A stretch of 64,000 bases of DNA from an uncultured bacterium (lineage in GTDB: Bacteria; Patescibacteriota; Minisyncoccia; UBA6257; 2-01-FULL-56-20), in NCBI GenBank assembly GCA_963705915.1, contig OY970126.1, positions 296,306 through 360,305 on the forward strand, given 5' to 3'. Below are positions 2,986 to 60,636 of the stretch, in pieces (within the stretch, counting starts at the first letter, position 1; the number at the start of each line of letters is the position of its first letter). Below the pieces are notes generated by a model. That model made no database searches. It was not told where the DNA came from and saw only the letters and a list, made by a program, of their open reading frames with translations. Position numbers and translations under genes: made by a program.

Positions 2986-3927
2986 CTAAGAATGCCAAAG
3001 CGCCTGGAAAACATTCGTACCGGTATAGGTTCCTGTCGGTTGATTATTTGGCACTTGAGCACCCCAAAATGCGGCCTGGGCGACGCTTGTCGTGGTCGTC
3101 GGTGCCGTGAGCAAAAATCCCGTCACGGTGACGGCCGATCCGGAAAGCGGCGTACCGGATCCTGCATTAGTGTAGTTGAACGACGATGTGGCGAACGATT
3201 GATCGCTCGTTGGAATTACGTTTGCACCTGAGGTGAGCGTGGCGAACGCGTAAAGCTGCAGCGAGGTTGATGAGTTACCCGCATTTGTTGAAGTCGTCAC
3301 CTGATCCGTTGCTCCCGTGTTTGAGTTTGCAGCAAGCGTCCCGTAATTAATGGATGACGTCGTCACGTTGAGCGCGAGCAAGGTGTTTAAAGTTTCCTGC
3401 GGACTCGCGTCGCCGGTGCCAGTGGTATTATCAGGCGTTCGGAACATCACCGTAGCCGTCCAATGGTCGCTCGAGAAACTTGACGAAGCATCCGTCGCCT
3501 GGGCGAAGTAATAAACACCAAATGTTGTTGTGGTATTCTGGCTGCCGCTCGAACACGTGCTCGTGGCGGTAAAAGCGGTCGCGACATAACAATTCAAATT
3601 GTTCGGGGTCGTAAGACACGTTGACGATGTGACCCCGGCGCGATACAGCAAAACCGTTGTGGTTCCCCCAGTAATTTCACTGCAACCGTTTGAATCAGTA
3701 ATCGTTGCATTCACGCTCACACTTGTCGTGGCATTTGCGGTGAGCGTTATAGCACTCGAACCATTCAGGGTTACCGCCGAAACCTGAGGTGCGGCAGTAC
3801 CTACAATCACCTGGCTTGTGATGTTTGTGGATGTGGCACCAAGGATGACGTGGCTCACCACAAAAAGGCCCGTGAACATTGATGCCACGATAACCCAAAC
3901 GGCAACCTCAGCCTTGATACCTTTCAT
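2986..3927 (-). CDS. secreted Ser/Thr-rich protein; paralogous to domains of the 3974..7993 giant protein
   Basis: ORF track 313 aa with an N-terminal TM/signal segment. It shares a Cys-containing ~110-aa domain (ITDSNGC..ITGGTTTVLLYR..STC...NCYVATAFTA.STCS...TTTFGVYYF) and a C-terminal INYGTL...LTSGAN..TS...ATS.F block with the downstream giant protein. Confidence 0.75.
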   Translation of the reverse strand: MKGIKAEVAVWVIVASMFTGLFVVSHVILGATSTNITSQVIVGTAAPQVSAVTLNGSSAITLTANATTSVSVNATITDSNGCSEITGGTTTVLLYRAGVTSSTCLTTPNNLNCYVATAFTATSTCSSGSQNTTTTFGVYYFAQATDASSSFSSDHWTATVMFRTPDNTTGTGDASPQETLNTLLALNVTTSSINYGTLAANSNTGATDQVTTSTNAGNSSTSLQLYAFATLTSGANVIPTSDQSFATSSFNYTNAGSGTPLSGSAVTVTGFLLTAPTTTTSVAQAAFWGAQVPNNQPTGTYTGTNVFQALWHS

Positions 3928-3973: not shown

Positions 3974-6900
3974 TCACTGGCCCGTGAAGGTCACCGTACC
4001 GCTATACGTTCCACTCACGCTACTCGACGGGATGCCGAGGCCCCAATAGATCGTGCTCGAAACGAGCGAGGTCGACGTGGGTGCGGAAAGTGAAAACCCG
4101 GATACCGTCGTCGGACTGCTATTGAGAATCTGTTCACTGCCTCCAAATGTGAACGTTGACGTCGCATAATGCTGTGAACTTGTGGCGATACTGTTTGCGC
4201 CGGACGTGAGCGCCGTGCCAGACAACTGCAGTCCAATCGCGGAATTGCCGAAATTCTCGACGAAGGCTGTTTGATTGGTGGATCCGGTGTTTGTGTTTGG
4301 ACTCAGAGTGCCGTAATTAATCGACGCGCCGCCGCTTGCTCCTTCGAACGTGGCTATACCAGGATCGTTATTGTTCCCGCTTCCCACAAGTGTGCCCGTA
4401 CTCGATGCGTTGACCTGGATCGTTGAGACGATCTGCTGCATGAAGATTTGCTCGTCATCGTTATATACATCAGACGAGGTGGCTTCTGCAATCCAATTTC
4501 CCGTCGGCGTAAGATTGAGCGTATTCGGCGCCGCCGCAAAATCGCCGCCGATCATGAGTTCATTCGCCTGTGTTGTTGTTATTGCAGGGCTTGCCCACGG
4601 CGTGCCTTGCCTACAACAAGAACCCGTAGATGTTGCTTGGTCCAGGGGATTGGTCGTCGTAATCCCGGTATAGTGGGCGGCAATCATGGAAAAATCGGCT
4701 GCTAGGTCATCGCCGGGGATGGTCGAGGATACCGTCGTGACACCCGCAGCCACATTATACGCATACCAAAGGCTATAGCTCCAATGGTTACCGAAATTGA
4801 GTTGCTGATAGGCAAGATGATAGGTGTCCCCCTTATTGTCGGTCGGTGTACCGGGACTCGTATCGCCGTCGACGCCGGAATATACCTGGACGAGAACAAG
4901 CTCCCCTGCATTCGTAGAAGTCGCAAAGGTCACTGTGGAGCTCGTACATCCTGCCGAAGTAGTCCCGCATCTCTCAATCTCCACAAGTGACGGAGTCTGT
5001 GGACCCGTCGATGAAGCTGTGACGCCCAAAGCACTCAAGGTGAGCAACTCCTGGCCTGTCGAGTCTTGCGTGGCGGTTGCGTTGCTCGAATCGGTAAAAT
5101 CAACCGTGCTCATCCAATCTTGCCCCGCATACGTTCCTGAATCGGTCGGGTCGGCAAAATAATAGACGCCGAATGTGGTCGTTGCATTCACCGTATTCCC
5201 GGAACAGGTACTCGATGCGGTGAACGCCGTTGCTACGTAGCAATCTTCATTATTAGGACTCGAACTACATGTGGACGAGCCAACGCCTGAGCGATAAAGC
5301 ATGACCGTGGTTGTTCCACTGGTGATCGCGGTGCAACCATTCGTGTCAGTGATCGTCGTGCCAACACTCACGCTCGTCGTCACGTCCGGCGTGAGAACAA
5401 TGCTCGACCCCCCGTTCACGGTTGTGTTCACAACGGCAAGCGGCGGCGAGGACGATGGCCGCCAGCTTGTGGTTACGTCGCAAACACTGCAGCCAAAATT
5501 GAGATTGCCCGCGACCGTGCCCGACGCGATGCCCGAAAAAACTCCGGTACTGCTACTGATCGTGACGCCGCTAAAATTAATCCAGCCAACATTTTGGCCC
5601 CAAGCATAGCCCTGAAGGTCGCCGAGGCCGTCGTTTGTAACGCCGCTTCCGGAAGGTGCCAAGTTAATCCAGCCAAAATTCTGGCTCCAAGCGTAGCCGG
5701 TCAGCTTGCTGCTATTCACGACCATAGGCGCATCGGCGGTGTTGAAATTTGTCCATGACATTTTATCGCCCCAGGCGAAACCGGGAGCAAGAGTGGAAGA
5801 AGGCGTATAAGCAATGACTATGACGCCCTGGCCGCCACTGCCCCCATTGCCGTCATTCGAAGCTGACCCTCCTGCTCCTGCTCCGCCACCGCCATAGAGT
5901 CCGCCGCTTCCACCATTGGCGCCAGTAGCCGTCGTGACTTCTCCAGCGCTGCCACCACCGCCGCCTGAACCATGAATAGCGTCCCATTCGGTCCCTGCGC
6001 CGCCGTTGCCTCCGACGTTATCGGCAACAACTGCGTTTCCTCCGTTCGCGCCGCCGCCGCCACCGCCGTTTGAACCTGCGCTCCCAGGTGCGCCGTGGAG
6101 CCCACCTGTTCCCGATCCACCAGGGCCGGAATTGCCGCCGTCTCCTCCGGTTCCAGCAGTAGCCCTCCCTCCGTTCGCTCCATTATCAGCTCCTCCGCCG
6201 CCACCGCTAGCTTTATTACCTACAACGTTGCCGTCGTCACCTCCATTGCCTCCATTACCAAATTTCCCTGCCGCCCCGCCACCAGCACCACCTCCTGCAC
6301 CGTTCTGATTAGATGAACCATTCCCACCGGATCCTCCGGCAAAGCAAGTCGCACCAATGCTCGTTGATGAAGCCCCTCCACCCCCTCCAGTTCCGCTGCT
6401 AGCGTTACCGCCGCTTCCCCCGTTCGCCCCGACAGAAGAAGATGCAAGCGTAAGACCGTTAAACCAGGTTCCGCCACCATTCCCTCCTGCCTCTGCTGTC
6501 CCAGTAGCGCCGGCACCGGCGGCCCCAACACGAATATCGATAATTTCCCCCGGGGTCAGCGCGAGATTGGATATTTTACAATAGGCGCCGCCGCCGCCGC
6601 CATCTCCGGAGTCACCGCCGTCATTTATCCGATCTCCGCCACCTCCGCCGCCGATGACTTCGATCGTGTTGCTCGCAGAGTTCCAATCAGAAGGAACCGT
6701 CCATGTGGTCAAGGCCGTGTTTGTAATAAAGATTGGACCGGTTGTATCTCTGAATGTTGCGATGCCGGGAAAGTTGAGCGTGCCGCTGGCCGCCGACCCC
6801 GTACTCGAAACATTATTCTGAATAGATGAGACGATCTGATCTTCGTATGCCATCCCGTTGTTTTCAGCACTGTCCGTTGAAGTCGCTTCCAACGTCCAGT

Positions 6901-7993
6901 TTCCCGTTGCAGAAAGCGAACAGGCACCGGCGGTATTTATATAACACCAATCCTGGCCCACTATAACTTCGTTGGCATAGTTGGTCGTCACGGCACCGCT
7001 CGCCCAAGGTCTAGTTTGGGCTCCGGTTGCCAGCGTTGAAGTTGAAACATCGAGCCATGCTGACGTTGCCATGCCTGTATAATGCGCAGCAATCAACGAC
7101 GCTTTAGTTCCACTATCCCCCGTCCCTGGCGTCGAAGACACCGTGGTTACGCCTGCAGGAACATCCGCCGCGTACCACAACGAGTAGTCGTATTGAGATT
7201 CTATATTCGGAACATCGTAGACTTCGGTATAAATATCGCCCTTGTTGTCAGTGGGCGTACCGATTACAGTGCCACCGCCCCCTGTATAGGCCTCGAGGAC
7301 GATGAGCTCTCCGGCAGTTGTAGGGGCACCAAAGGTAATACTCGTGGTGCTATTTCCGGCTTCAGTCTCCACGAGTGTCGGCGCCCCGGTTGCGGCAGTC
7401 GTGTAGGTGGCATAAATAGTCGGAGCCTCCGCATAAAGACCCCCCCCACTTGGAGCAGTACTCGGAAAAGACGACGCCGTTCCTTGACAAGCGCCGTTCG
7501 CAGAACCACCACAATAAAAACTATTCGCTGGACTGCTGTTATTGTATTCATAATCCATCTGTCGGCCGTTGATGCTCCCACCGCTCGCCTCCGCAACCGC
7601 GAACCAATATTGTGTGCCCGAAGTAATGCTCGCGGTTAGATATGTAGTCACGTTTCCGTAGGTCGCGGGGAGCGGGCTGCCGTTCACGTTTGATGCTATG
7701 AGTGTGCCTGGCTGGCCACTGTTGTCAGTGTATAATGCCACGCCCATAACGTTGCCCGTTGCACCCAAATCGTCTTGTACGTTTTCAAAGGTGACTGAGG
7801 TGAGTGTTCCGTTATCACTTGGCACAGACTGTGCCTTGAAATACATGACGTATGAATTGCCGTCAACACCGGTTGTATTAGGCGTCTGATTGCCAAAACG
7901 CATGGCCTGTTGCGAGGCATACGTTGAAAGCGGCGAGAGAAAAAGACCAAATCCAAGGAGCCCAAAAAATAGTGCGGTAGTTTTTGAAGACAT
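3974..7993 (-). CDS. giant secreted protein with internal domain duplication and ~280-aa Gly-rich low-complexity core
   Basis: ORF track 1363 aa from 8065. The signal-peptide-like MSSKTTALFFGLLGFGLFLSPLSTYA begins at the internal Met (7993), which avoids overlap with the upstream gene. It has two ~125-aa paralogous blocks (TAGELIVLEAYTGGGG... and NAGELVLVQVYSGVDG...) and a GGxGG-rich core. Confidence 0.8.
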   Translation of the reverse strand: MSSKTTALFFGLLGFGLFLSPLSTYASQQAMRFGNQTPNTTGVDGNSYVMYFKAQSVPSDNGTLTSVTFENVQDDLGATGNVMGVALYTDNSGQPGTLIASNVNGSPLPATYGNVTTYLTASITSGTQYWFAVAEASGGSINGRQMDYEYNNSSPANSFYCGGSANGACQGTASSFPSTAPSGGGLYAEAPTIYATYTTAATGAPTLVETEAGNSTTSITFGAPTTAGELIVLEAYTGGGGTVIGTPTDNKGDIYTEVYDVPNIESQYDYSLWYAADVPAGVTTVSSTPGTGDSGTKASLIAAHYTGMATSAWLDVSTSTLATGAQTRPWASGAVTTNYANEVIVGQDWCYINTAGACSLSATGNWTLEATSTDSAENNGMAYEDQIVSSIQNNVSSTGSAASGTLNFPGIATFRDTTGPIFITNTALTTWTVPSDWNSASNTIEVIGGGGGGDRINDGGDSGDGGGGGAYCKISNLALTPGEIIDIRVGAAGAGATGTAEAGGNGGGTWFNGLTLASSSVGANGGSGGNASSGTGGGGGASSTSIGATCFAGGSGGNGSSNQNGAGGGAGGGAAGKFGNGGNGGDDGNVVGNKASGGGGGADNGANGGRATAGTGGDGGNSGPGGSGTGGLHGAPGSAGSNGGGGGGANGGNAVVADNVGGNGGAGTEWDAIHGSGGGGGSAGEVTTATGANGGSGGLYGGGGAGAGGSASNDGNGGSGGQGVIVIAYTPSSTLAPGFAWGDKMSWTNFNTADAPMVVNSSKLTGYAWSQNFGWINLAPSGSGVTNDGLGDLQGYAWGQNVGWINFSGVTISSSTGVFSGIASGTVAGNLNFGCSVCDVTTSWRPSSSPPLAVVNTTVNGGSSIVLTPDVTTSVSVGTTITDTNGCTAITSGTTTVMLYRSGVGSSTCSSSPNNEDCYVATAFTASSTCSGNTVNATTTFGVYYFADPTDSGTYAGQDWMSTVDFTDSSNATATQDSTGQELLTLSALGVTASSTGPQTPSLVEIERCGTTSAGCTSSTVTFATSTNAGELVLVQVYSGVDGDTSPGTPTDNKGDTYHLAYQQLNFGNHWSYSLWYAYNVAAGVTTVSSTIPGDDLAADFSMIAAHYTGITTTNPLDQATSTGSCCRQGTPWASPAITTTQANELMIGGDFAAAPNTLNLTPTGNWIAEATSSDVYNDDEQIFMQQIVSTIQVNASSTGTLVGSGNNNDPGIATFEGASGGASINYGTLSPNTNTGSTNQTAFVENFGNSAIGLQLSGTALTSGANSIATSSQHYATSTFTFGGSEQILNSSPTTVSGFSLSAPTSTSLVSSTIYWGLGIPSSSVSGTYSGTVTFTGQ

Positions 7994-8030
7994 AACGATC
8001 CGTACTTTAATAATACCAGAGAAACGAGCC

Positions 8031-10379
8031 TTACTTGCTCTTCCCTTTCGGAACCGAAAGCTCATTTTGGCTCGCGGGCGCGGAAGACGTTGCGTTCGAT
8101 GGGATTGGTTCCCCTGCCTGCAAGTTCGCGATCGCGGTCTCTATCTGCTGATTCCCAGGATTGAGCTGGAGTGCAAGATCGAATTGCTGAAGCGCTTGAG
8201 CATCAAGCCCTTGAGCCGCATCAACCACACCGAGATAATAGTGGGCATTCGCATAATCGGGCTCAAGAATCGCCGCCACCTGGAACTCCTGTTCAGCCTG
8301 TGCAATTTGGTTGCTTTGATAATCAAGGTAACCAAGCTCAAAAGCCACGCCCGGGTCGAGCGGGTTTTGCTGTTCGAGTTCTTGTACCCGTGAGATTGCC
8401 TGAGCGGTATTTCCCTCTTTTATATATAAATTAATGAGCGCGATGCGGGCATCGGTATAATCGTCTTTGAGCGACAGCGCTTTTTCAAAAAGCGCTTCTG
8501 CCTGGCTCCAGTCGGCGGTTTGGGAGGCGTTACTCAGGGAACCCGCGCTACCCGGTGCGAGACCGGCGGACTCCACAAAGACGCGGCCCATCGCGAGATC
8601 CCACTGAGGGTTCTGTGGATCCAAAGCTGCTGCCTGCCCGTAACTGTTTTCAGCAAGCGTGTCGGCTCCACCGACGAGCGGCATAATACTTTCATATACG
8701 GAGCCAAGATTTCCCCAATTCGCCGCGTCGCGGCCATTAAGCTGAGTGGCTCCTTGCGCGGCCTGCACGGCATTTGCGAGTACCGACGGCAATTCGGCGG
8801 TGCCCGTGGCAGCGTTTTCCGCTATGAGTTGTTGTGCTTCCTGGATTAAAAGTTGTGATGCGCCGCGAAGATACACGTCTGTACGATCAAGCGCAAGTGC
8901 CTGATTCATATCGGCAAAGGCCTGGCTCAGGTTGCCCGACGCTTCTTCGTCGCTCACGCGGCCAAAAAAGATGGCAGCCCCATACCGCTCACCGCCGGCA
9001 TACATCGTGGCGAGCGTCCCTGCGGCAATGATCATGAGTATGATCAATATGAAGAACGAGAAGCTGCGGGGCGCTCCATCAAACGAAATATTCTCCTCGG
9101 GAGCATCAACGAGGAATGCACCGATGAATAGAAAGAAAAGAATACCTTCGGCGAAAAACAGCGGATACAAGAAAAGCGCCAATCCGAGGAACGCCGCCGC
9201 AGAGAGCAGCATCGCGCGATCCGGCGAAAACGATTGGATATCGAGCAACCACCATCCAACAAGACTCAGCAATCCGAGGAACAGGAGCCAGGCAACCAGC
9301 CCCCCCGTGGCGAGCAACGTGAGCACGAAATCGTATCCCTGCATTGGCGTTGTATTCCATAAGCTTGTTTCATTCACACTGACCGGCTTCCATAATGCAA
9401 AATCGAGATAGAATGTCGACGGCCCCGTGCCAACAAGCGATCGCCAACCAAGAAGCGACGGACCGACAGCGTCAAACGTTGCACCGATACTCGGACGGAC
9501 ATCCGGCGGCGCTTGATGAAGCCACGGCAAGCGCGGACCGACGAGCGACAAGAATAACGCCACAACGACAATGATAAATGCATATCGAAATCCCTGGCTC
9601 GTATCCGACGCCGACCGCAGCGCCGCGAGAATAATCGTGAAGAGCGCTACCGCGAGCCATAATAATTGATAATTGATGAGGAGGAGGCCGAGTGCTGCGG
9701 CGCAGGCTATCACCACAAAACTCCATCGCTCAAAACGGGAAAAGGGCTTAGTGCCAGCAACGCCAAGCGCAGCGAGTACGGCAACGAGCAATATCCCCCA
9801 TGCGGCAATCGAGCCGATGGGATTCTGTAACACAGATGATCCGGCTCCAAAAAGCTGCACAAGTCCGATGATTGAAGCGACGAGCAATCCAACACCTGCA
9901 CACAACCCAACGGTCTTCATATCGCGCGGGCGCAAAAAATAATACGTGAGATAACAAATCACGGCGCAGATGATAAGCGCGAGTACTGAATCAGGTTGAT
10001 CAAGCGACCCATAAAAACTTTGTGCGGGAGCGACCGAAGTCCACGCGCTCACAATCTCCGCAAGAATGAAGAGTCCGAGCGTTGGGAAAAACCATGACCG
10101 TGGATATGATAGTGTGCGCTCCTCAAAAACCGCGCCAAGAAAACAAACAAAGGCGGCAGCGGCGAGAAAACCGATCACCATGATCTTGTTAATCCCCACC
10201 GGATCAACCGTTAACGGTAAATAGAAAACGGGCACAAGCAGCGCAATTGCAAAAATGCAAAAACGTCCGATCGATCGAAATGCACGCGCCCGCTCACGGG
10301 GTCGCGGTATATCGCTCGGCGCTGGCGGCGGACCTTCGTAATAGGTTTCCTCGATGATAACGGTTTCTGAAGTGCGCAT
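8031..10379 (-). CDS. O-antigen ligase/Wzy-like polytopic membrane protein fused to C-terminal TPR repeats
   Basis: ORF track 782 aa. It has more than 10 predicted TM helices, followed by a TPR-like repeat region (AEALFEKALSLKDDYTDARIALINLYIKEGNTAQAI... YANAHYYLGVVDAAQGLDAQALQQFDLALQLNPGN). Confidence 0.75.
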   Translation of the reverse strand: MRTSETVIIEETYYEGPPPAPSDIPRPRERARAFRSIGRFCIFAIALLVPVFYLPLTVDPVGINKIMVIGFLAAAAFVCFLGAVFEERTLSYPRSWFFPTLGLFILAEIVSAWTSVAPAQSFYGSLDQPDSVLALIICAVICYLTYYFLRPRDMKTVGLCAGVGLLVASIIGLVQLFGAGSSVLQNPIGSIAAWGILLVAVLAALGVAGTKPFSRFERWSFVVIACAAALGLLLINYQLLWLAVALFTIILAALRSASDTSQGFRYAFIIVVVALFLSLVGPRLPWLHQAPPDVRPSIGATFDAVGPSLLGWRSLVGTGPSTFYLDFALWKPVSVNETSLWNTTPMQGYDFVLTLLATGGLVAWLLFLGLLSLVGWWLLDIQSFSPDRAMLLSAAAFLGLALFLYPLFFAEGILFFLFIGAFLVDAPEENISFDGAPRSFSFFILIILMIIAAGTLATMYAGGERYGAAIFFGRVSDEEASGNLSQAFADMNQALALDRTDVYLRGASQLLIQEAQQLIAENAATGTAELPSVLANAVQAAQGATQLNGRDAANWGNLGSVYESIMPLVGGADTLAENSYGQAAALDPQNPQWDLAMGRVFVESAGLAPGSAGSLSNASQTADWSQAEALFEKALSLKDDYTDARIALINLYIKEGNTAQAISRVQELEQQNPLDPGVAFELGYLDYQSNQIAQAEQEFQVAAILEPDYANAHYYLGVVDAAQGLDAQALQQFDLALQLNPGNQQIETAIANLQAGEPIPSNATSSAPASQNELSVPKGKSK

Positions 10380-54453: not shown

Positions 54454-55815
54454 ATGCCCTCCAAAAAATCCGATCTTAAACTTCCGCCCCAGAATCTCGA
54501 GGCGGAGCAAAATGTGCTGGGCAGCCTTCTTATCGACAAGAACGCCATTTTTCGTGTCGCCGACCTTCTCGTGTCGGATGATTTCTATGCGCCAGCGCAT
54601 GCAAGGATTTATGATGCCATTTTGCACCTCTACGAGAAACGACAACCAATCGACGTCCTTTCACTCACAACCTACCTCAAAGACCAGGAGCTCCTGAAGG
54701 ATGTTGGCGGGTCAAGCTACCTCGCAGAACTCACGAACCAAGTGACAACGGCATCCCACGTGGCGCACTATGCAGGCATCGTCCGAGAAAAGAAAGTGCG
54801 GCGCGACCTCATCAAGGCTTCTGCTGAAATGGCAGAGAGTGCGTTCGAGAACGGACAGGAAATCGACGACCTTCTCGACGACAACGAACAAAAAATTCTT
54901 GCGATCTCACAGCATTCACTCCCGCAAAACTTCGTAGCCCTCAAAGACGATCTCGTCACAGCGTACGAACGTATCGCGACGCTCCACACCGGCGGCGGCA
55001 AGCTGCGCGGCGTGCCAACCGGATTCCATGAGCTTGACGAGACGCTTTCCGGTTTACAAAAGTCTGAACTCATCATCGTGGGCGCCAGGCCGTCTGTTGG
55101 AAAAACATCGCTCGCCCTCGACATCGGACGCAACTGCGCAAAAGCCGGACACACCGTCGGTATTTTTTCCCTTGAAATGTCCCGCGAACAATTACAGGAC
55201 CGCATCATTGCCGCCGAGTCACAGGTACCGCTCTGGCACATCCTCACCGGACGCATAACCAGCGAGAGCGAATTTCCGATGATTCAGGACGCGCTCGACC
55301 GGCTCTCGCAGATAAAACTGTTTATCGACGATTCCCCTTCGCTCAACGTCCTGCAGATGCGCTCGATGGCGCGGCGGTTGCAGGTTGAACACGGCCTCGA
55401 CCTCCTCATCATTGACTACCTCCAGCTGATCCGGCCGCGGGTGAACTTTGAAAGTATGGTTCAGCAGGTCACCGAGATTTCGCGGGGCTTGAAAGCGCTC
55501 GCCCGCGAGCTTAAAATCCCCGTCGTCGCCCTTTCCCAGCTCTCCCGCGGCGTTGAACAACGTGATCACAAAGTTCCCCGCCTCTCGGACCTCCGCGAAT
55601 CAGGATCTATTGAACAAGACGCCGACATCGTGATGTTTATTTGGCGCGACGAACATAATCCAAACGATACCGCGAGCGAATCCGACAACGTCGTTCATCT
55701 TCGTATCGCCAAACACCGCAACGGTCCATTGCGCGATATCGACTTCTTCTTCGACGCCGAACGCGCGAGCTTCAAGGTTTTGGAAAAACGCTACAGCGAA
55801 TTGCCCCCGTTATGA
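54454..55815 (+). CDS. dnaB: replicative DNA helicase DnaB
   Basis: ORF track 453 aa. N-terminal DnaB domain, Walker A GARPSVGKTS, RecA-like core. Confidence 0.95.
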   Translation: MPSKKSDLKLPPQNLEAEQNVLGSLLIDKNAIFRVADLLVSDDFYAPAHARIYDAILHLYEKRQPIDVLSLTTYLKDQELLKDVGGSSYLAELTNQVTTASHVAHYAGIVREKKVRRDLIKASAEMAESAFENGQEIDDLLDDNEQKILAISQHSLPQNFVALKDDLVTAYERIATLHTGGGKLRGVPTGFHELDETLSGLQKSELIIVGARPSVGKTSLALDIGRNCAKAGHTVGIFSLEMSREQLQDRIIAAESQVPLWHILTGRITSESEFPMIQDALDRLSQIKLFIDDSPSLNVLQMRSMARRLQVEHGLDLLIIDYLQLIRPRVNFESMVQQVTEISRGLKALARELKIPVVALSQLSRGVEQRDHKVPRLSDLRESGSIEQDADIVMFIWRDEHNPNDTASESDNVVHLRIAKHRNGPLRDIDFFFDAERASFKVLEKRYSELPPL

Positions 55816-56414
55816 AGTTGCCATCTCCCGTCCAGCGCGTGATCGAAGAACTTTCGAAGCTTCCTTCGATTGGTCCGCGTCAATCAGTTCGTCTCGCATT
55901 CCATCTCATTGGAGAGAATAAAGGCGAGCTCAAATCGTTCGCCGAAGCGATCGACGGTTTACGCAGTATTAAAATCTGTGAGCGATGTTTTTTTATCCAC
56001 CAGAACGATGACACGCTTTGCGACATCTGCAGAAATCCAAACCGAAAGCAGAATATCATTATGGTGATTGAAAAAGAAACGGACCTCATTTCACTCGAAG
56101 ACACTAAAAAATTTATCGGCCGTTATTGTATTGTTGGCCCGATCGCAAAAACGGGCTTTCTCGAACCGTGGCAAAAACTTCGCCTTCAAAGCTTGAAATC
56201 GTTTATAGAGAAAAATCTTGACGGGCAAGCAGACGAGATTATCTTGGCATTCAACCCAACGTCGCTCGGCGATTTTCAAGCATCGCTTCTCATGAAAGAA
56301 CTTGGCCCGCTGGCAAAAAAAATAAGCCGCTTGGGGCGCGGCTTACCAACGGGCGGCGAGATCGAGTTTGCCGACGACGAGACGCTCGGCAGCGCACTCG
56401 AACGGCGGAGCTAA
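55812..56414 (+). CDS. recR: recombination protein RecR
   Basis: ORF track 200 aa. HhH, C4 zinc finger CERCFFIHQNDDTLCDIC, Toprim. Confidence 0.9.
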   Translation: MKLPSPVQRVIEELSKLPSIGPRQSVRLAFHLIGENKGELKSFAEAIDGLRSIKICERCFFIHQNDDTLCDICRNPNRKQNIIMVIEKETDLISLEDTKKFIGRYCIVGPIAKTGFLEPWQKLRLQSLKSFIEKNLDGQADEIILAFNPTSLGDFQASLLMKELGPLAKKISRLGRGLPTGGEIEFADDETLGSALERRS

Positions 56415-56628
56415 CTTTTCGGCGGCGGCGATGATGCGGACCCTTCCTTCTCGAGGGGCTTATCGGGCGGGCTTTCCATTTTCTGCTTCAGGCGAGCCCT
56501 GAGCTTTCTCAGTTTGTTCTCTTCACTATTCGATTCGTTCTGTCTCGGCGTGTGAAATTCAGCGCCCATCGCAAAGGCTCCTTTTTAACGCTAGCGAATG
56601 ACGTGCTTTCCTGAGAGACACTATACCC

Positions 56629-57660
56629 TTAACCGTGCCGAACTTCAAGGACGTCGCCGTCTTGGACGACGTAGTCTTTTCCTTCAACGCGAAGCCACCC
56701 CTTTTGCTTCGCGGCAGCCCAGTTCCCCGCAATGAGCAGCTTATCACACGCAACGACTTCAAGACGAATAAACTTTTTCTCAAAATCGGTATGAATGACA
56801 CCCGCTGCTTGCGGCGCCTTCGTTCCCTGCTCAATCGTCCATGCACGTGTCTCATCCTCGCCCGTCGTGAAGAAACTGATGAGGTTCAGCGTGGCATAGG
56901 CTTCGCGTACGAGCTCGGGAACTGATTGCGCCGACGAGAGGTCAATTACAATATGATGCGCGCCAAGCGACGCGAGCTTCTCGGTGAGCGCCTGCGGCAC
57001 GTCGGCCGGTGTTCCATTTAAAAGATAAATCTGCCGCTTGAGGGTGAGAAGGTTCACATCCTTCAGTCGTCCGGTAGTTGCAATCTCGTGCGCAATTTCG
57101 TTTGCGAGCGCGACGTCGGCAACCGGCAGTCGGCCGGCCTCAAGGCACGCCTTCAATCGTCCAAGCAATTCTTTGTCCTGTATCGCTTCTTTTTTTCCTG
57201 TGCGCGCTTCGGCTTCGGCCTTCGCAAATCGTTTTTCGACAAGCTCGAGGTCCTTCAAAATCAATTCCGCGTTGATAATCTCGAGGTCGCGCAACGGATC
57301 GACAGAATTTTCAACGTGGATAATTTCCGGATTCTGGAAGACGCGCAAAACGACCACGATCGCTTGCGTCTCCTTGATGTGGCCAAGAAATTGATTGCCG
57401 AGGCCTTCACCCTTATTGGCACCCTTCACGAGCCCTGCAATATCATAGAATTCAACAACCGCCGGGATTTTTTTCTTGGACTTGCTCATCAGAGCCAGCT
57501 TCTCGCCCCGGTCGTCGGGAACGGAAACAATGCCAACATTTGGATCAATCGTGGCAAAAGGATAATTTGCGATCGTAATATCCTGCTTGGTGAGAATTTT
57601 AAAAAGCGTTGATTTGCCAACGTTGGGGAGACCGACGATGCCAAGAGAAATTTTTGCCAT
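56629..57660 (-). CDS. ychF: redox-regulated ATPase YchF (Obg-family GTPase)
   Basis: ORF track 343 aa. GIVGLPNVGKSTLF P-loop and C-terminal TGS domain. Confidence 0.95.
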   Translation of the reverse strand: MAKISLGIVGLPNVGKSTLFKILTKQDITIANYPFATIDPNVGIVSVPDDRGEKLALMSKSKKKIPAVVEFYDIAGLVKGANKGEGLGNQFLGHIKETQAIVVVLRVFQNPEIIHVENSVDPLRDLEIINAELILKDLELVEKRFAKAEAEARTGKKEAIQDKELLGRLKACLEAGRLPVADVALANEIAHEIATTGRLKDVNLLTLKRQIYLLNGTPADVPQALTEKLASLGAHHIVIDLSSAQSVPELVREAYATLNLISFFTTGEDETRAWTIEQGTKAPQAAGVIHTDFEKKFIRLEVVACDKLLIAGNWAAAKQKGWLRVEGKDYVVQDGDVLEVRHG

Positions 57661-57670
57661 ATGGGTTGAA

Positions 57671-58651
57671 CTATATTACATCTTCATCAAAATTCAAAGT
57701 TAAAATCTCAGCGGCAATCTTTTTTGCATTCCCGTGTTTCAACATGCTGAGATATGATGTCACGCGTCCAGGTTTTGGATATTCTCCAATTCGCTTGAGC
57801 GCACGTCGTTTTGTTGCTGGGCGAAGCACTCTGTGATCGGGAAAACAAACCCAACCAAGAAAATCCACCCCCGACGCCCATGTCTTAATAGACACTTTGC
57901 GTGGATGCAGTGATAGCTTCAATGCCCGATCCAGAAAATCCGCGATATGTGGCATAAGGGCCTCGAGTTCAGTTTTGTCATCACCGAGGAACACGAAGTC
58001 GTCGGCGTAGCGAATATAATATTTCTTACGCAAATCATGCTTCACGTATCGATCAAACTCATTCACGTAAACGTTCACCAAAAGTTGCGATGTCAGATTG
58101 CCGAGGGGCAATCCCCGCTTTGGACTGCTTTCAAAACTATCGATCACTTTTCCGAGAAGCCACAGCGTACCCCTTTCGGGAATATGCCTCTCGATTACTT
58201 GCATCAATGACGAATGATCAACTGATGCGAAAAATTTTCGTATGTCGCATTTTAGAACCCAACACGTTCGAGTATTATTTTTTGACACCTTGCGAGCAAA
58301 ATCATAAAAGCGCCGCACGGCGCGATGGACACCCTTATTGTTACGGCAAGAATAGATATCGTGTACGAATTTCTTATCAAAATGTGGATATAGGATGCGA
58401 TAGATAGCGTGATGAAGGACTCTATCGCGAACGGTAGCTTTGTGGATGCTGCGTGGCTTTGGATCGCTGATGCCGAAAGCGTGATAAGCCCCGTGCTCGT
58501 AGATTTTATTTTTCAGGTCTTCGTGGAGTGCATATAAATTACTGGAAAGGTTGAGCGAAAACTCCGCCACGTCTTTCTTGGCCTTTTTGCCGCGCACGAA
58601 TTCCTGCCAAGCGGCACAGAGGTTTTCAAATGATATAATAGTTTCAAACAT
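57671..58651 (-). CDS. diversity-generating retroelement (DGR) reverse transcriptase
   Basis: ORF track ORF from 58720; the likely start is the internal Met at 58651 (MFETIISFENL...). RT motifs include YADDFVFLGDD and the DGR-RT-specific LPLGNLTSQLLVNVY (I/LGxxxSQ). It is collinear with the Bordetella phage BPP-1 bRT (EPKPR..., SDF.KFF.S.D, GI.FLG...H..LR). Confidence 0.85.
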   Translation of the reverse strand: MFETIISFENLCAAWQEFVRGKKAKKDVAEFSLNLSSNLYALHEDLKNKIYEHGAYHAFGISDPKPRSIHKATVRDRVLHHAIYRILYPHFDKKFVHDIYSCRNNKGVHRAVRRFYDFARKVSKNNTRTCWVLKCDIRKFFASVDHSSLMQVIERHIPERGTLWLLGKVIDSFESSPKRGLPLGNLTSQLLVNVYVNEFDRYVKHDLRKKYYIRYADDFVFLGDDKTELEALMPHIADFLDRALKLSLHPRKVSIKTWASGVDFLGWVCFPDHRVLRPATKRRALKRIGEYPKPGRVTSYLSMLKHGNAKKIAAEILTLNFDEDVI

Positions 58652-58667
58652 ATGAACGCAGGAAAAA

Positions 58668-59063
58668 ATGACAAGAATAGGGGGGGGGCAAATTTTACCA
58701 TCAACTCTCGTCAAGCTCAAAACCGCCTATAAGAATTGGCTCGCACTTTTCCATCATTTTCCAAAAGTGGAACGTTTCGGTGTCGGTCAGAAAATCGAGC
58801 GATCGTTTCTTGATGCACTTGAACTGATTTTTTTGTCGGGCTTTGCGCCCACCGAACAGAAACTCCCAATCCTGACAAAAGCAGTGACGCGGCTGGATGT
58901 TTTGAAATTCTTTTTGCAGATCGCTTGGGAAAATAAACTGCTTACAACCGAGCACTATTCCACTTTGCTCGCCAATATCGAGGAGGTCGGCAGAATGCTC
59001 TATGGCTGGAAAAGGGGCCTTGAAAGTAAAACTCCCGCGAGAAAAGCGGGAGAACCACAGTAG
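58668..59063 (+). CDS. avd: Avd-like four-helix-bundle protein (DGR accessory variability determinant), encoded antisense to RT/TR; contains G9 tract at codons 5-7
   Basis: ORF track 131 aa: ...LKTAYKNWLALFHHFPKVERFGVGQKIERSFLDALELIF...VLKFFLQIAWENKLLTTEHYSTLLANIEEVGRMLYGWKRGL. This matches the FPK.E+FG...EIG+ML.G pattern of TIGR02436/Avd proteins. An AGGA RBS lies 6 nt upstream. There is a GGGGGGGGG run at 58680..58688. Confidence 0.6.
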   Translation: MTRIGGGQILPSTLVKLKTAYKNWLALFHHFPKVERFGVGQKIERSFLDALELIFLSGFAPTEQKLPILTKAVTRLDVLKFFLQIAWENKLLTTEHYSTLLANIEEVGRMLYGWKRGLESKTPARKAGEPQ

Positions 59064-59171
59064 TTGCGAGAGAAGACGGGGTTGTCGTCGTTCCACCTGT
59101 TGTCGTCCAAGGCGTTGCATTCGCGTTCCAGCCGTCGTCGTTCCAGTTGACGTTGACCGTGCGAAGCACGC
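59064..59171 (-). repeat. DGR template repeat (TR)
   Basis: A 108-nt near-copy of 59527..59635. Read on the minus strand, every substitution maps to an A in this copy (A>G or A>T at about 14 sites, including the AAC codons), plus one 1-nt indel. Confidence 0.75.
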
Positions 59172-59488
59172 ACCACTCTCGTATATGCACCCATCCGTGC
59201 CACCACCCCTCGACGCATCTTGAGGTTGTATCGTATTCGGGACGTAGAAGTCCACCGAGTACATATACCAATTCCTGTTATATTTTTGGAAATGAGTTCC
59301 TGCACTCCCGCGCAAGACGTGTCCGACGCAGCTCTCGCAAAGAACCATCTCAAAGTCGTGACGAAAAAGCCATAGCCGTTCCGTATCGCACGATTTCAAA
59401 TTCAGTATAACAATTTATGTAAAGTATAAAAAATAATGACCCCTCCTGCGTTGCTTTGCAGAAAGGGGTCAAGGTGTCGAGGTTCCAA

Positions 59489-59505
59489 GGGGTCATTGAG
59501 ACCCC
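59489..59505 (-). other. GC hairpin (GGGGUC-ucaau-GACCCC) ~20 nt downstream of VR 3' end, as expected for DGR target-site cruciform/IMH-proximal structure
   Basis: Read directly. A second 7-bp stem (gacccct...aggggtc) follows at 59440-59473. Confidence 0.45.
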
Positions 59506-59519
59506 AGGGTTCCTAGTTG

Positions 59520-60164
59520 TCAGGAATTGCGAGAGAAGACGGGGTTGCCGTCGTTCCACCTGACGCCGTCCAAGGCGACGGCACCCGCGAACCAGCCGTC
59601 GTCGTTCCAGCCGACGTCGACCGCGCGAAGCACGCCTTCGCGATCGCGAACGTAAAAGATGTTTGCCCACCCATTATTGAGCAGGACACCTTCGCCGCCA
59701 TTCGCCTGACGCTCCATGAGTCGCCAGATTTCCGCGAGGGTAACTTCCGCAGCAGTTTCGCCACCAAGATCGGCGATGATCTCGCTGTCGTTCGCGCTCT
59801 GGGTTAGCGTGAGCGGTCGAAGCTCCCCTTCGGGAAAATCCTCCTCAACCTTGCCGCCGAACCAGCTCTTGAAGTTCGAGCCGTGTTCGACCATCTTGAC
59901 GCCAGATTTCTTGTTGAAGAAAGTTTTGTCCGCATTGAACGGGAGGCTCTCGGTCGGCGGGGGTGTCGGGATCGGTCGGAGAATTTTATAGATACGCTTC
60001 TCAACAGGCCCCTTCGGACGGTTCCGAATGGCCGCAACCATTGTTGCGATTGCGTCCTTCGGTTGTTGAAACACGAACTGCCCATCCGAGTTTGAAAGTG
60101 TCTTGAAGCAGGCTTGATGGGTCACGAGTTGCCCCATCATTGCAGGGATCTGTTGTTCAGTCAT
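59520..60164 (-). CDS. DGR target protein (214 aa, no signal peptide) with C-terminal VR encoding a CLec-like ...GWNDDGW...RWNDGN... ligand-binding tip
   Basis: ORF track ORF from 60272. The internal Met at 60164 is preceded by a strong AAGGAG RBS. The VR lies at the C-terminus. Confidence 0.75.
   Translation of the reverse strand: MTEQQIPAMMGQLVTHQACFKTLSNSDGQFVFQQPKDAIATMVAAIRNRPKGPVEKRIYKILRPIPTPPPTESLPFNADKTFFNKKSGVKMVEHGSNFKSWFGGKVEEDFPEGELRPLTLTQSANDSEIIADLGGETAAEVTLAEIWRLMERQANGGEGVLLNNGWANIFYVRDREGVLRAVDVGWNDDGWFAGAVALDGVRWNDGNPVFSRNS
59527..59635 (-). repeat. DGR variable repeat (VR) in the last ~38 codons of the target gene
   Basis: Pairs with the TR. It ends 5 nt before the target stop codon and encodes ...RAVDVGWNDDGWFAGAVALDGVRWNDGNPVFSRNS. 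Confidence 0.75.
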
Positions 60165-60366
60165 GGTATTTCTCCTTGTGACCGTTTCTACAGTACTCTG
60201 CTGTTGGATTTGGCGTATTGGTTTCGCCACAGCCCACAAAGGCTTACTCAAAGCCACTCTGGGCTGTAGCAAAATCTCCCTCTATCAATGTACTATGCCC
60301 ACATTATATACCATAATAACCCACTCTGTCAAGATCGCCATTCTTATCTCGTACTTACGCATGTCC

Positions 60367-60636
60367 TTATGAATGCGTCTCCACCGCCTCAAATGTTTCC
60401 GAAACTGCCTGGGTGGTATTCACAACTTTCACTTTTTCGTTTCCATATTTAGTTCTGAGCACAGTCATCAATTCGTCCGCGTATGATGGCGAGAGCACTT
60501 CAACACCGGTGAAATCCAAAACCACATCCTCCGTTTTGGCGGTCCCATTGACGATCTGCTGAATACGCAAAGCCGCCTCCCGTGCTACAGGACGGCCGTT
60601 GAGTACGGTATTAAATTTTGACATTTGGACGGTCAT
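60367..60636 (-). CDS. STAS-like (DUF4325-type) small protein, putative anti-sigma-antagonist-like partner of the upstream ATPase
   Basis: ORF track 89 aa: ...EDVVLDFTGVEVLSPSYADELMTVLRTKYG... resembles STAS/SpoIIAA-like folds. Starts 12 nt below the ATPase stop. Confidence 0.55.
   Translation of the reverse strand: MTVQMSKFNTVLNGRPVAREAALRIQQIVNGTAKTEDVVLDFTGVEVLSPSYADELMTVLRTKYGNEKVKVVNTTQAVSETFEAVETHS

Follow-up and report, generated by a model that had tools for sequence, protein, structure and literature searches.

A conserved-position, length-variable repeat in the first codons of avd as a candidate switch of a Patescibacteria diversity-generating retroelement

We analyzed a 64,000-nt stretch of contig OY970126.1 (assembly GCA_963705915.1, positions 296,306 to 360,305), hereafter the window, from an uncultured bacterium of the Patescibacteriota. 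It contains a diversity-generating retroelement (DGR) whose accessory gene, avd, carries a run of nine guanines (G9) within its first codons. Comparison with related loci indicates that this run is one form of a simple repeat that recurs at the homologous site of avd, differs in length between near-identical genomes and sets the reading frame of an otherwise intact gene. On this comparative basis we lean, with modest confidence, towards slipped-strand phase variation that, through a tract of conserved position, would affect Avd and with it mutagenic homing. The elements on which the argument turns are the following (positions are those of the window).

58680–58688, plus strand: G9 simple-sequence tract (GGGGGGGGG), codons 5–7 (Gly-Gly-Gly) of the 131-amino-acid (aa) open reading frame (ORF) of avd
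58652–58654, plus strand: conserved avd start ATG, back to back with the reverse transcriptase (RT) start (CATATG), with a homologous ATG and N-terminal peptide in relatives
58668–59063, plus strand: avd ORF as assembled, 131 aa, identified by profiles, AlphaFold2 and Foldseek; its ATG is lineage-specific and in frame at G9
57671–58651, minus strand: DGR RT gene, 326 aa, with RVT_1 and DGR motifs; RT homologs are divergent from avd in 75/75 related loci
59064–59172, minus strand: template repeat (TR), located by near-repeat comparison with the variable repeat
59527–59635, minus strand: variable repeat (VR), at the 3′ end of the target gene, located by near-repeat comparison with the TR
59520–60164, minus strand: DGR target gene from the ORF listing, 214 aa, with C-terminus ...WNDDGWFAGAVALDGVRWNDGNPVFSRNS

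A repeat of conserved position and variable length in related loci

The related set comprised 80 loci from reference genomes, most labelled as metagenome-assembled genomes of Patescibacteria or the candidate phyla radiation (CPR) and a few labelled otherwise; counts of orientation and tract rest on the 75 loci with sequence upstream of avd. At the homologous avd 5′ site, 68 of these 75 loci (~90%) carry a simple repeat, mostly 7–13 nt ahead of the codon for a conserved proline of avd (Pro11). Read in the avd sense, the repeat is C7–C12 in 62 loci, (GA)n in four and (CA)4 in two, with poly-C lengths of C9 (23 loci), C10 (18), C11 (11), C8 (7), C12 (2) and C7 (1). In the sub-lineage nearest to the window the tract is G11 in locus L108, G8 in L109 and L110, and (GA)n in L111 and in L113, the Avd of the latter being 91% identical. 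Across 568 kb of related loci, 61 of the 65 C/G runs of at least 8 nt fall at the avd 5′ site, against an estimated ~2 expected by composition. One locus without a tract at this site (L053) has a C11 run ~590 nt upstream (3406–3416).

The distance between tract and Pro11 is tight while the divergent RT-avd region varies from 40 to 88 nt in length, and the tract thus appears to be anchored to the avd codons and not to the RT start. The presence of different repeat units at one homologous site suggests selection for mutability and not for sequence, under which poly-C, poly-G, (GA)n and (CA)n would be expected to interchange at a single position.

Tract length was found to differ between loci whose flanks (200 nt on each side) are 99.5–100% identical, as in L009 (C8) and L105 (C11), and likewise among near-identical flanks in L097 (C10), L101 (C8) and L084 (C9), in L094 (C8) and L107 (C9), and in L100 (C11) and L106 (C12). 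Over ~2.4 kb, the sole differences between L094 and L107 are the tract (C8 vs C9) and four positions of the VR, each of which corresponds to a TR adenine. These VR differences provide indirect evidence that the DGR was recently active in this near-clonal pair, and the restriction of all differences to tract and VR suggests that tract length changes on the timescale of DGR activity. The two loci correspond to JGI contigs Ga0209518_1000731 (L094) and C687J35021_10023735 (L107). Length differences between near-identical genomes hence occur among the relatives, the window's own strain presenting G9 only.

The tract sets the reading frame of avd

Homologs of ATG 58652 were identified in L108 (G11, in frame), L109 and L110 (G8, in frame), L001 and L111, and the N-terminal peptide read from this codon in the window, MNAGKNDKNRGG, is homologous to MDAKNSNKDWGG of L109. 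At G9, the frame opened by ATG 58652 encodes only 26 aa and ends at TAA 58730–58732. ATG 58668 is absent from the closest relatives of the window and is specific to its lineage. An earlier note on this DNA, made from the sequence of the window, had placed the avd start at ATG 58668; this codon is indeed in frame at G9, but the conserved start is 58652, which at G9 is out of frame.

In an in silico series from G7 to G12, G8 and G11 yielded a 136- and a 137-aa Avd from ATG 58652, G9 and G12 yielded a 131- and a 132-aa Avd from ATG 58668, and G7 and G10 yielded none. The tract at codons 5–7 sets the frame, its length toggling both starts, and G9 would represent an 'off' state for the ancestral start and an 'on' state only for the lineage-specific ATG 58668.

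The phase of the tract with respect to the positionally conserved ATG, assessed in 47 loci, was close to random: 10 loci are in frame, 22 have a surplus nucleotide and 15 lack one (chi-square against uniform, p = 0.098, the loci not being independent). An in-frame start upstream of the tract is lacking in 45/69 loci, and no stop interrupts the avd body ahead of residue 125 in any of the 80 loci. Protein clusters at 90% identity hold members with very unlike called N-termini, as would be expected of gene callers where the frame at the tract differs.

Around the two start codons (58649–58654) the window has no intergenic DNA, and the 5′ coding ends of RT and avd overlap by 9–12 nt in other relatives; each promoter must therefore lie inside the other gene. 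Three candidate signals were located at this junction:

58631–58639, plus strand: extended -10-like element TGATATAAT, inside RT codons (Ile-Ile-Ser) and 12 nt ahead of ATG 58652, with a putative promoter role
58660–58663, plus strand: Shine-Dalgarno (SD)-like AGGA, 4 nt ahead of ATG 58668
58692–58720, minus strand: promoter-like TTGAGC-17 nt-TAAAAT (with TG), from a consensus scan only, whose start point would fall in the tract; it is not conserved and its assignment is speculative

The same -10-like motif lies 12 nt ahead of the conserved ATG in L108, L109, L111 and L113, the motif being partly forced by RT coding. Among 50 long ORFs of the window, TGnTATAAT-like extended -10 motifs are frequent near start codons, ending 6–7 nt ahead of the ATG, which suggests widespread leaderless mRNAs in this genome. 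The AGGA at 58660 constitutes weak evidence for a start at ATG 58668, since SD-like motifs precede just 4 of the 50 ORFs.

G9 is the dominant state in the window

The G9 run is the sole run of G or C of at least 9 nt within the 64 kb. Because base composition predicts ~0.5 such runs per window, the run by itself is not remarkable; it is the position that lies far beyond chance. A Logan assembly of ERR11523672 is 100% identical to the window over 3660 nt, G9 included, and an ENA contig (ERZ25039493 contig_90099; L114) differs from the window by 14 single-base indels, all of which lie outside G9. With two other assemblies in agreement, one of them rich in indels elsewhere, G9 is the dominant state and not an assembler quirk, and the suggestion of the earlier note that the run could equally be an assembly artifact is not sustained.

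Compared with window positions 54660–59652, L114 carries 15 substitutions in addition to the 14 indels, which break dnaB, ychF and the RT, and a deletion in it removes the avd stop, giving rise to a 184-aa 'Avd' (P0162). L114 looks like an unpolished long-read assembly, and proteins deposited from that assembly should be treated with caution. The other long C/G run of the window (7440–7447; C8 on the plus strand, G8 on the coding strand) sits in a 1363-aa ORF (3974–8065, minus strand) and is possibly another slippage-prone site.

Identification of the DGR and its Avd

The RT (N-terminus MFETIISFENL..., start at 58651 on the minus strand) matched Pfam RVT_1 (6.8e-27) and contains the motifs LGNLTSQ at residue 183, of the DGR type [I/L]GxxxSQ, and YADD at residue 215. 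Comparison of TR and VR over 109 nt revealed 14 substitutions, all 14 at TR adenines (10 A>G, 4 A>T; the TR contains 28 A), and one 1-nt indel. The VR ends 5 nt ahead of the target stop, and its final ~21 nt are the same as in the TR, forming a segment of putative function that resembles the initiation of mutagenic homing (IMH) sequence. The target protein had no match in Pfam, NCBIfam or PDB sequences, and a scan of 57500–60400 against Rfam returned just one chance snoRNA match, below threshold.

The plus-strand ORF, running from its ATG to a TAG stop at 59061–59063, scored 46.7 bits against Pfam bAvd PF22296 (gathering score 40) and 59.7 bits against NCBIfam DivGenRetAVD (NF033474), under the equivalog cut-off of 80. 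An AlphaFold2 model built on 26 homologs (predicted local distance difference test, pLDDT, 87.9) contains four helices (residues 9–28, 33–57, 62–88 and 94–121), with residues 1–6 below a pLDDT of 50 and predicted to form a disordered N-terminal leader ahead of helix 1, which begins at residue 9. Foldseek aligned the model with Bordetella Avd (4dwl) at template modeling (TM) scores of 0.74 by query length and 0.90 by target length and a root-mean-square deviation (rmsd) of 1.5, and also with the Avd chains of the DGR ribonucleoprotein 8ub7. No second copy was detected in the 64-kb window by tblastn with its Avd. The bAvd family is characterized by an RT-binding pentamer on which cDNA synthesis depends, a role that is putative for the Avd of the window.

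Together, profiles and model identify the 131-aa ORF as a genuine Avd, predicted to form a four-helix bundle. RT motifs, adenine-only TR/VR substitutions and the Avd profile and fold mark the cassette as a bona fide, complete and ordinary CPR-type DGR. These results uphold the anatomy outlined in the earlier note, which had recognized an Avd-like ORF on the plus strand, opposite to RT, TR and target on the minus strand, with 16 nt between the RT and avd ATGs (58652–58667), an avd stop that abuts the TR (homology from 59064) and a G9 run encoding Gly5–7. Since a scan of IMG/VR found no relatives of the window's Avd, this DGR clade does not look phage-borne.

A model for stochastic switching of Avd

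We propose that G9 is the lineage form of a hypermutable tract whose position is conserved and whose sequence is not, lying in the first ~10 avd codons, within the predicted disordered N-terminal leader. Slipped-strand mispairing at replication would alter tract length and move the intact avd body into or out of frame with a start codon, so that the supply of Avd, and thus adenine-mutagenic homing, would turn on and off at random and in a reversible manner. In the window, two of the three phases would allow a full-length Avd. The model assumes slippage within populations, a need for Avd here as in Bordetella and the use of one or the other of the two ATGs. The slipped-strand switch put forward in the earlier note hence gains strong comparative support from the tract in 68/75 loci and its labile length, whereas the window itself presented G9 in all three assemblies.

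Several observations weigh against this model. No length variant was found among the three assemblies of the window's organism, all G9, and a search of JGI metagenome contigs with the flanks of the window's tract around N{5,15} gave no match to a variant length. In-frame states are not enriched (10/47); were Avd essential, avd would be 'off' in most of the populations sampled, or its expression would proceed via recoding. In the window, the switch may be leaky because of ATG 58668, which is in frame. C occupies the avd-sense strand in 61 of the 62 homopolymer cases, a bias that may reflect shared ancestry but could reflect a strand-specific function. The related loci are not phylogenetically independent. 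Lastly, many relatives have a covarying hairpin directly past the poly-C tract, which hints that some further role is played in the RNA or the DNA.

A broader proposal, on which we stand close to evenly divided and slightly on the doubtful side, is that a stochastic switch, heritable and conserved, governs DGR hypermutation across the Patescibacteria by way of a hypermutable repeat within the opening avd codons. Most populations would be 'off' and rare slippage would re-arm the system, as a form of second-order bet-hedging in which the tract is selected for its mutability.

Alternative explanations

The main rival to phase variation, which we regard as unlikely, is recoding: RNA polymerase slippage, or a ribosomal +1/-1 frameshift at CCC/GGG codons, would restore the frame, such that every tract length gives a low, tuned amount of Avd, with the hairpin downstream of the tract in poly-C relatives acting as stimulator. 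This would account for the intact avd bodies of loci that are mostly out of frame with the conserved ATG, and one nucleotide too many, the state of the window, is also the commonest phase (22/47). The hairpin, a short 5-bp stem that in roughly half of the relatives starts 0–3 nt past the poly-C tract (for instance at L006:3996–4020, L010:3993–4017 and L039:3997–4011), shows compensatory changes in three of its five base pairs (GC<->UA, CG<->UA, AU<->GC), but neither the window nor its (GA)n and poly-G relatives have it. The direction of the required shift, which in a programmed frameshift is shared across homologs, is not consistent among the 47 loci (10/22/15, chi-square p = 0.098). Furthermore, (GA)n and (CA)n do not belong to the classical slippery sites of the ribosome, and tract length varies between identical strains, a change that programmed recoding does not need.

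Less probable still is that the tract serves the RT strand, as a G-rich surrogate of a ribosome-binding site, as a start of reiterative transcription or as a spacer between face-to-face promoters, and thereby controls RT and not Avd. In some poly-C relatives the complementary G-run lies 4–13 nt ahead of a possible RT ATG, the promoter-like TTGAGC-17-TAAAAT of the window would start transcription in the run, and the lack of intergenic space places the promoter of each divergent gene inside the other gene. Set against this, the distance from the tract to the RT start is variable (40–88 nt region) while that to Pro11 is tight, and the RT strand of the window and of the (GA)n relatives carries C or TC repeats, unable to mimic an SD sequence, for which 4–6 nt would be required and not a variable 8–12. 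As a general explanation, the complementary G-run as SD sequence of the RT was rejected on its variable spacing, on the C-run of the window and on the scarcity of SD motifs (4/50 ORFs); an RT promoter starting in the tract was rejected as well, the RT-strand -10-like element not being conserved in relatives.

We also considered whether the opposite orientation of avd exists so that TR-RT read-through RNA regulates Avd as antisense, which we deem improbable. The earlier note had presented this orientation as a departure from described DGRs. It corresponds to architecture B3 of Wu et al. (2018, PMC5758913), TR-(avd)-RT with parentheses denoting the reverse strand, which makes up 90% of their CPR DGR set. 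In agreement with this, RT is upstream of avd and divergent in 75/75 related loci, so that opposite orientation is the standard in this group; in ~60 related loci the TR is found between -30 and +27 nt from the avd stop, with a T>N bias on the avd strand, and the VR ~460 nt beyond the TR. The layout of the window, target/VR, TR, inverted avd and RT, has the B3 core order. The orientation of avd is thus already known and brings no news.

With avd located between TR and RT on the other strand, read-through of a terminator after the TR would be possible. The extent of the TR transcript is informed by the following element:

59022–59052, minus strand: terminator-like hairpin CTCCCGC-TTTTCTC-GCGGGAG followed by TTTTACTTTC, within the last avd codons and present in the minimum-free-energy fold

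On the TR strand, this 7-bp GC-rich hairpin (59052–59032) begins 11 nt past the TR 3′ end, and in 51/64 related loci an equivalent hairpin followed by TTTT (pattern CTCCCnn...nnGGGAG) comes directly after the TR, with arms that covary (CTCCCGC/GCGGGAG, CTCCTCGGC/GTCGGGGAG, TTCTGCT/AGCAGAA). The hairpin overlaps the final avd codons ('TPA..AGE' tail). It resembles an intrinsic terminator, or else a structured module at the 3′ end of the DGR RNA, and its conservation and covariation, together with the T-tract, suggest that the TR RNA is probably short and separate, ending within the last ~40 nt of avd; the RNA so predicted would cover only this 3′ end of avd. The antisense relationship between TR-RT and avd claimed by the earlier note accordingly stands as to strand, while an obligatory run of the transcript through avd is weakened.

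Finally, that the run has no function, being an assembly or sequencing artifact or a neutral hotspot in a dispensable leader or a decaying DGR, would fit the ~0.5 such runs expected in 64 kb, the error-prone sequencing of homopolymers and a TR 1 nt shorter than the VR as possible decay, but appears largely refuted already, and very improbable, given the sharing of G9 with two other assemblies (one indel-laden elsewhere), the 61/65 long C/G runs of related loci at the avd site where composition predicts ~2, the different repeat units at one site, the intact RT and avd bodies and a VR that diverges only at TR adenines.

Additional features of the cassette

The 1-nt difference between TR and VR results from an indel at TR 59115/59116 relative to VR 59578–59580 (minus strand; TR GCAACGCC, VR GCCGTCGCC). 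The AAC codons on either side of the gap are in frame only if the TR formerly had one extra A, and the present TR, copied into the VR, would frameshift the last ~23 codons of the target. The gap is also found in the two other assemblies. Indels beside AAC have been described in 7% of DGRs (PMC5758913). The target gene is among the few ORFs of the window with a strong SD sequence (AAGGAG before 60164), and one further structure was located at its 3′ side:

59440–59467, minus strand: GC-rich hairpin and T-tract, downstream of the VR and of the target stop; terminator and/or DGR hairpin

Implications

Uncontrolled homing is presumably costly to the host of a DGR. If correct, phase variation of Avd would provide a simple, testable answer to how DGR mutagenesis is regulated in the CPR bacteria, the largest reservoir of DGRs, and would explain the odd or truncated starts annotated for many CPR avd genes. 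It would also offer a marker of the armed DGR that can be counted in reads and correlated with VR diversity in time-series metagenomes. For annotation, the avd start in these genomes is the ATG that abuts the RT start, often out of frame. No description of the avd tract was found in the searchable literature, which did not extend to the principal account of CPR DGRs (Paul et al., 2017, Nat Microbiol). What may be new here is a contingency repeat gating a DGR accessory gene, a rating that hangs on read-level confirmation.

Comparison with known systems

The B3 DGRs of the CPR (Wu et al., 2018, PMC5758913) have the same gene order and reverse-strand avd as the window, and the TR/VR indel beside AAC is described there as well; the available part of the paper makes no mention of an avd 5′ tract, of out-of-frame avd starts or of a hairpin and U-tract after the TR. 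The DGR of Bordetella phage BPP-1 (mtd-VR, avd, TR, brt) shares with the window an RT with [I/L]GxxxSQ, a four-helix-bundle Avd, adenine-specific TR-to-VR changes and a VR at the 3′ end of the target. In BPP-1, avd lies upstream of the TR on the same strand, and a spacer of ~140 nt precedes brt. In the window, by contrast, an inverted avd with a hypervariable tract occupies the space between TR and RT and touches both.

Programmed frameshift and transcriptional slippage sites, such as those of insertion sequence (IS) elements, dnaX and prfB, resemble the avd tract in their slippery homopolymer and, for many relatives, in the hairpin after it. The avd tract differs from them in that the direction of the shift is not fixed, the repeat unit varies and the length is unstable in the DNA. 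A slippage-prone repeat at a head-to-head gene junction is also known from the TA repeats of Haemophilus influenzae hifA/hifB, where the repeat sets the -35/-10 spacing in a shared promoter region. The avd tract, unlike that of hifA/hifB, is inside the avd frame and placed by avd codons, not by promoter hexamers.

A further parallel is found in homopolymeric contingency loci, such as the poly-G tracts of Campylobacter jejuni and the poly-G/C tracts of Neisseria and Haemophilus, which like the window have G/C tracts of ~8–12 nt in the 5′ coding region. The avd tract resembles them in a length that varies between near-identical strains and in a reading frame turned on or off by that length. The tracts of C. 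jejuni, Neisseria and Haemophilus usually gate surface or restriction-modification genes, whereas the avd tract, for which we infer switching within populations, would gate an accessory factor of targeted hypermutation.

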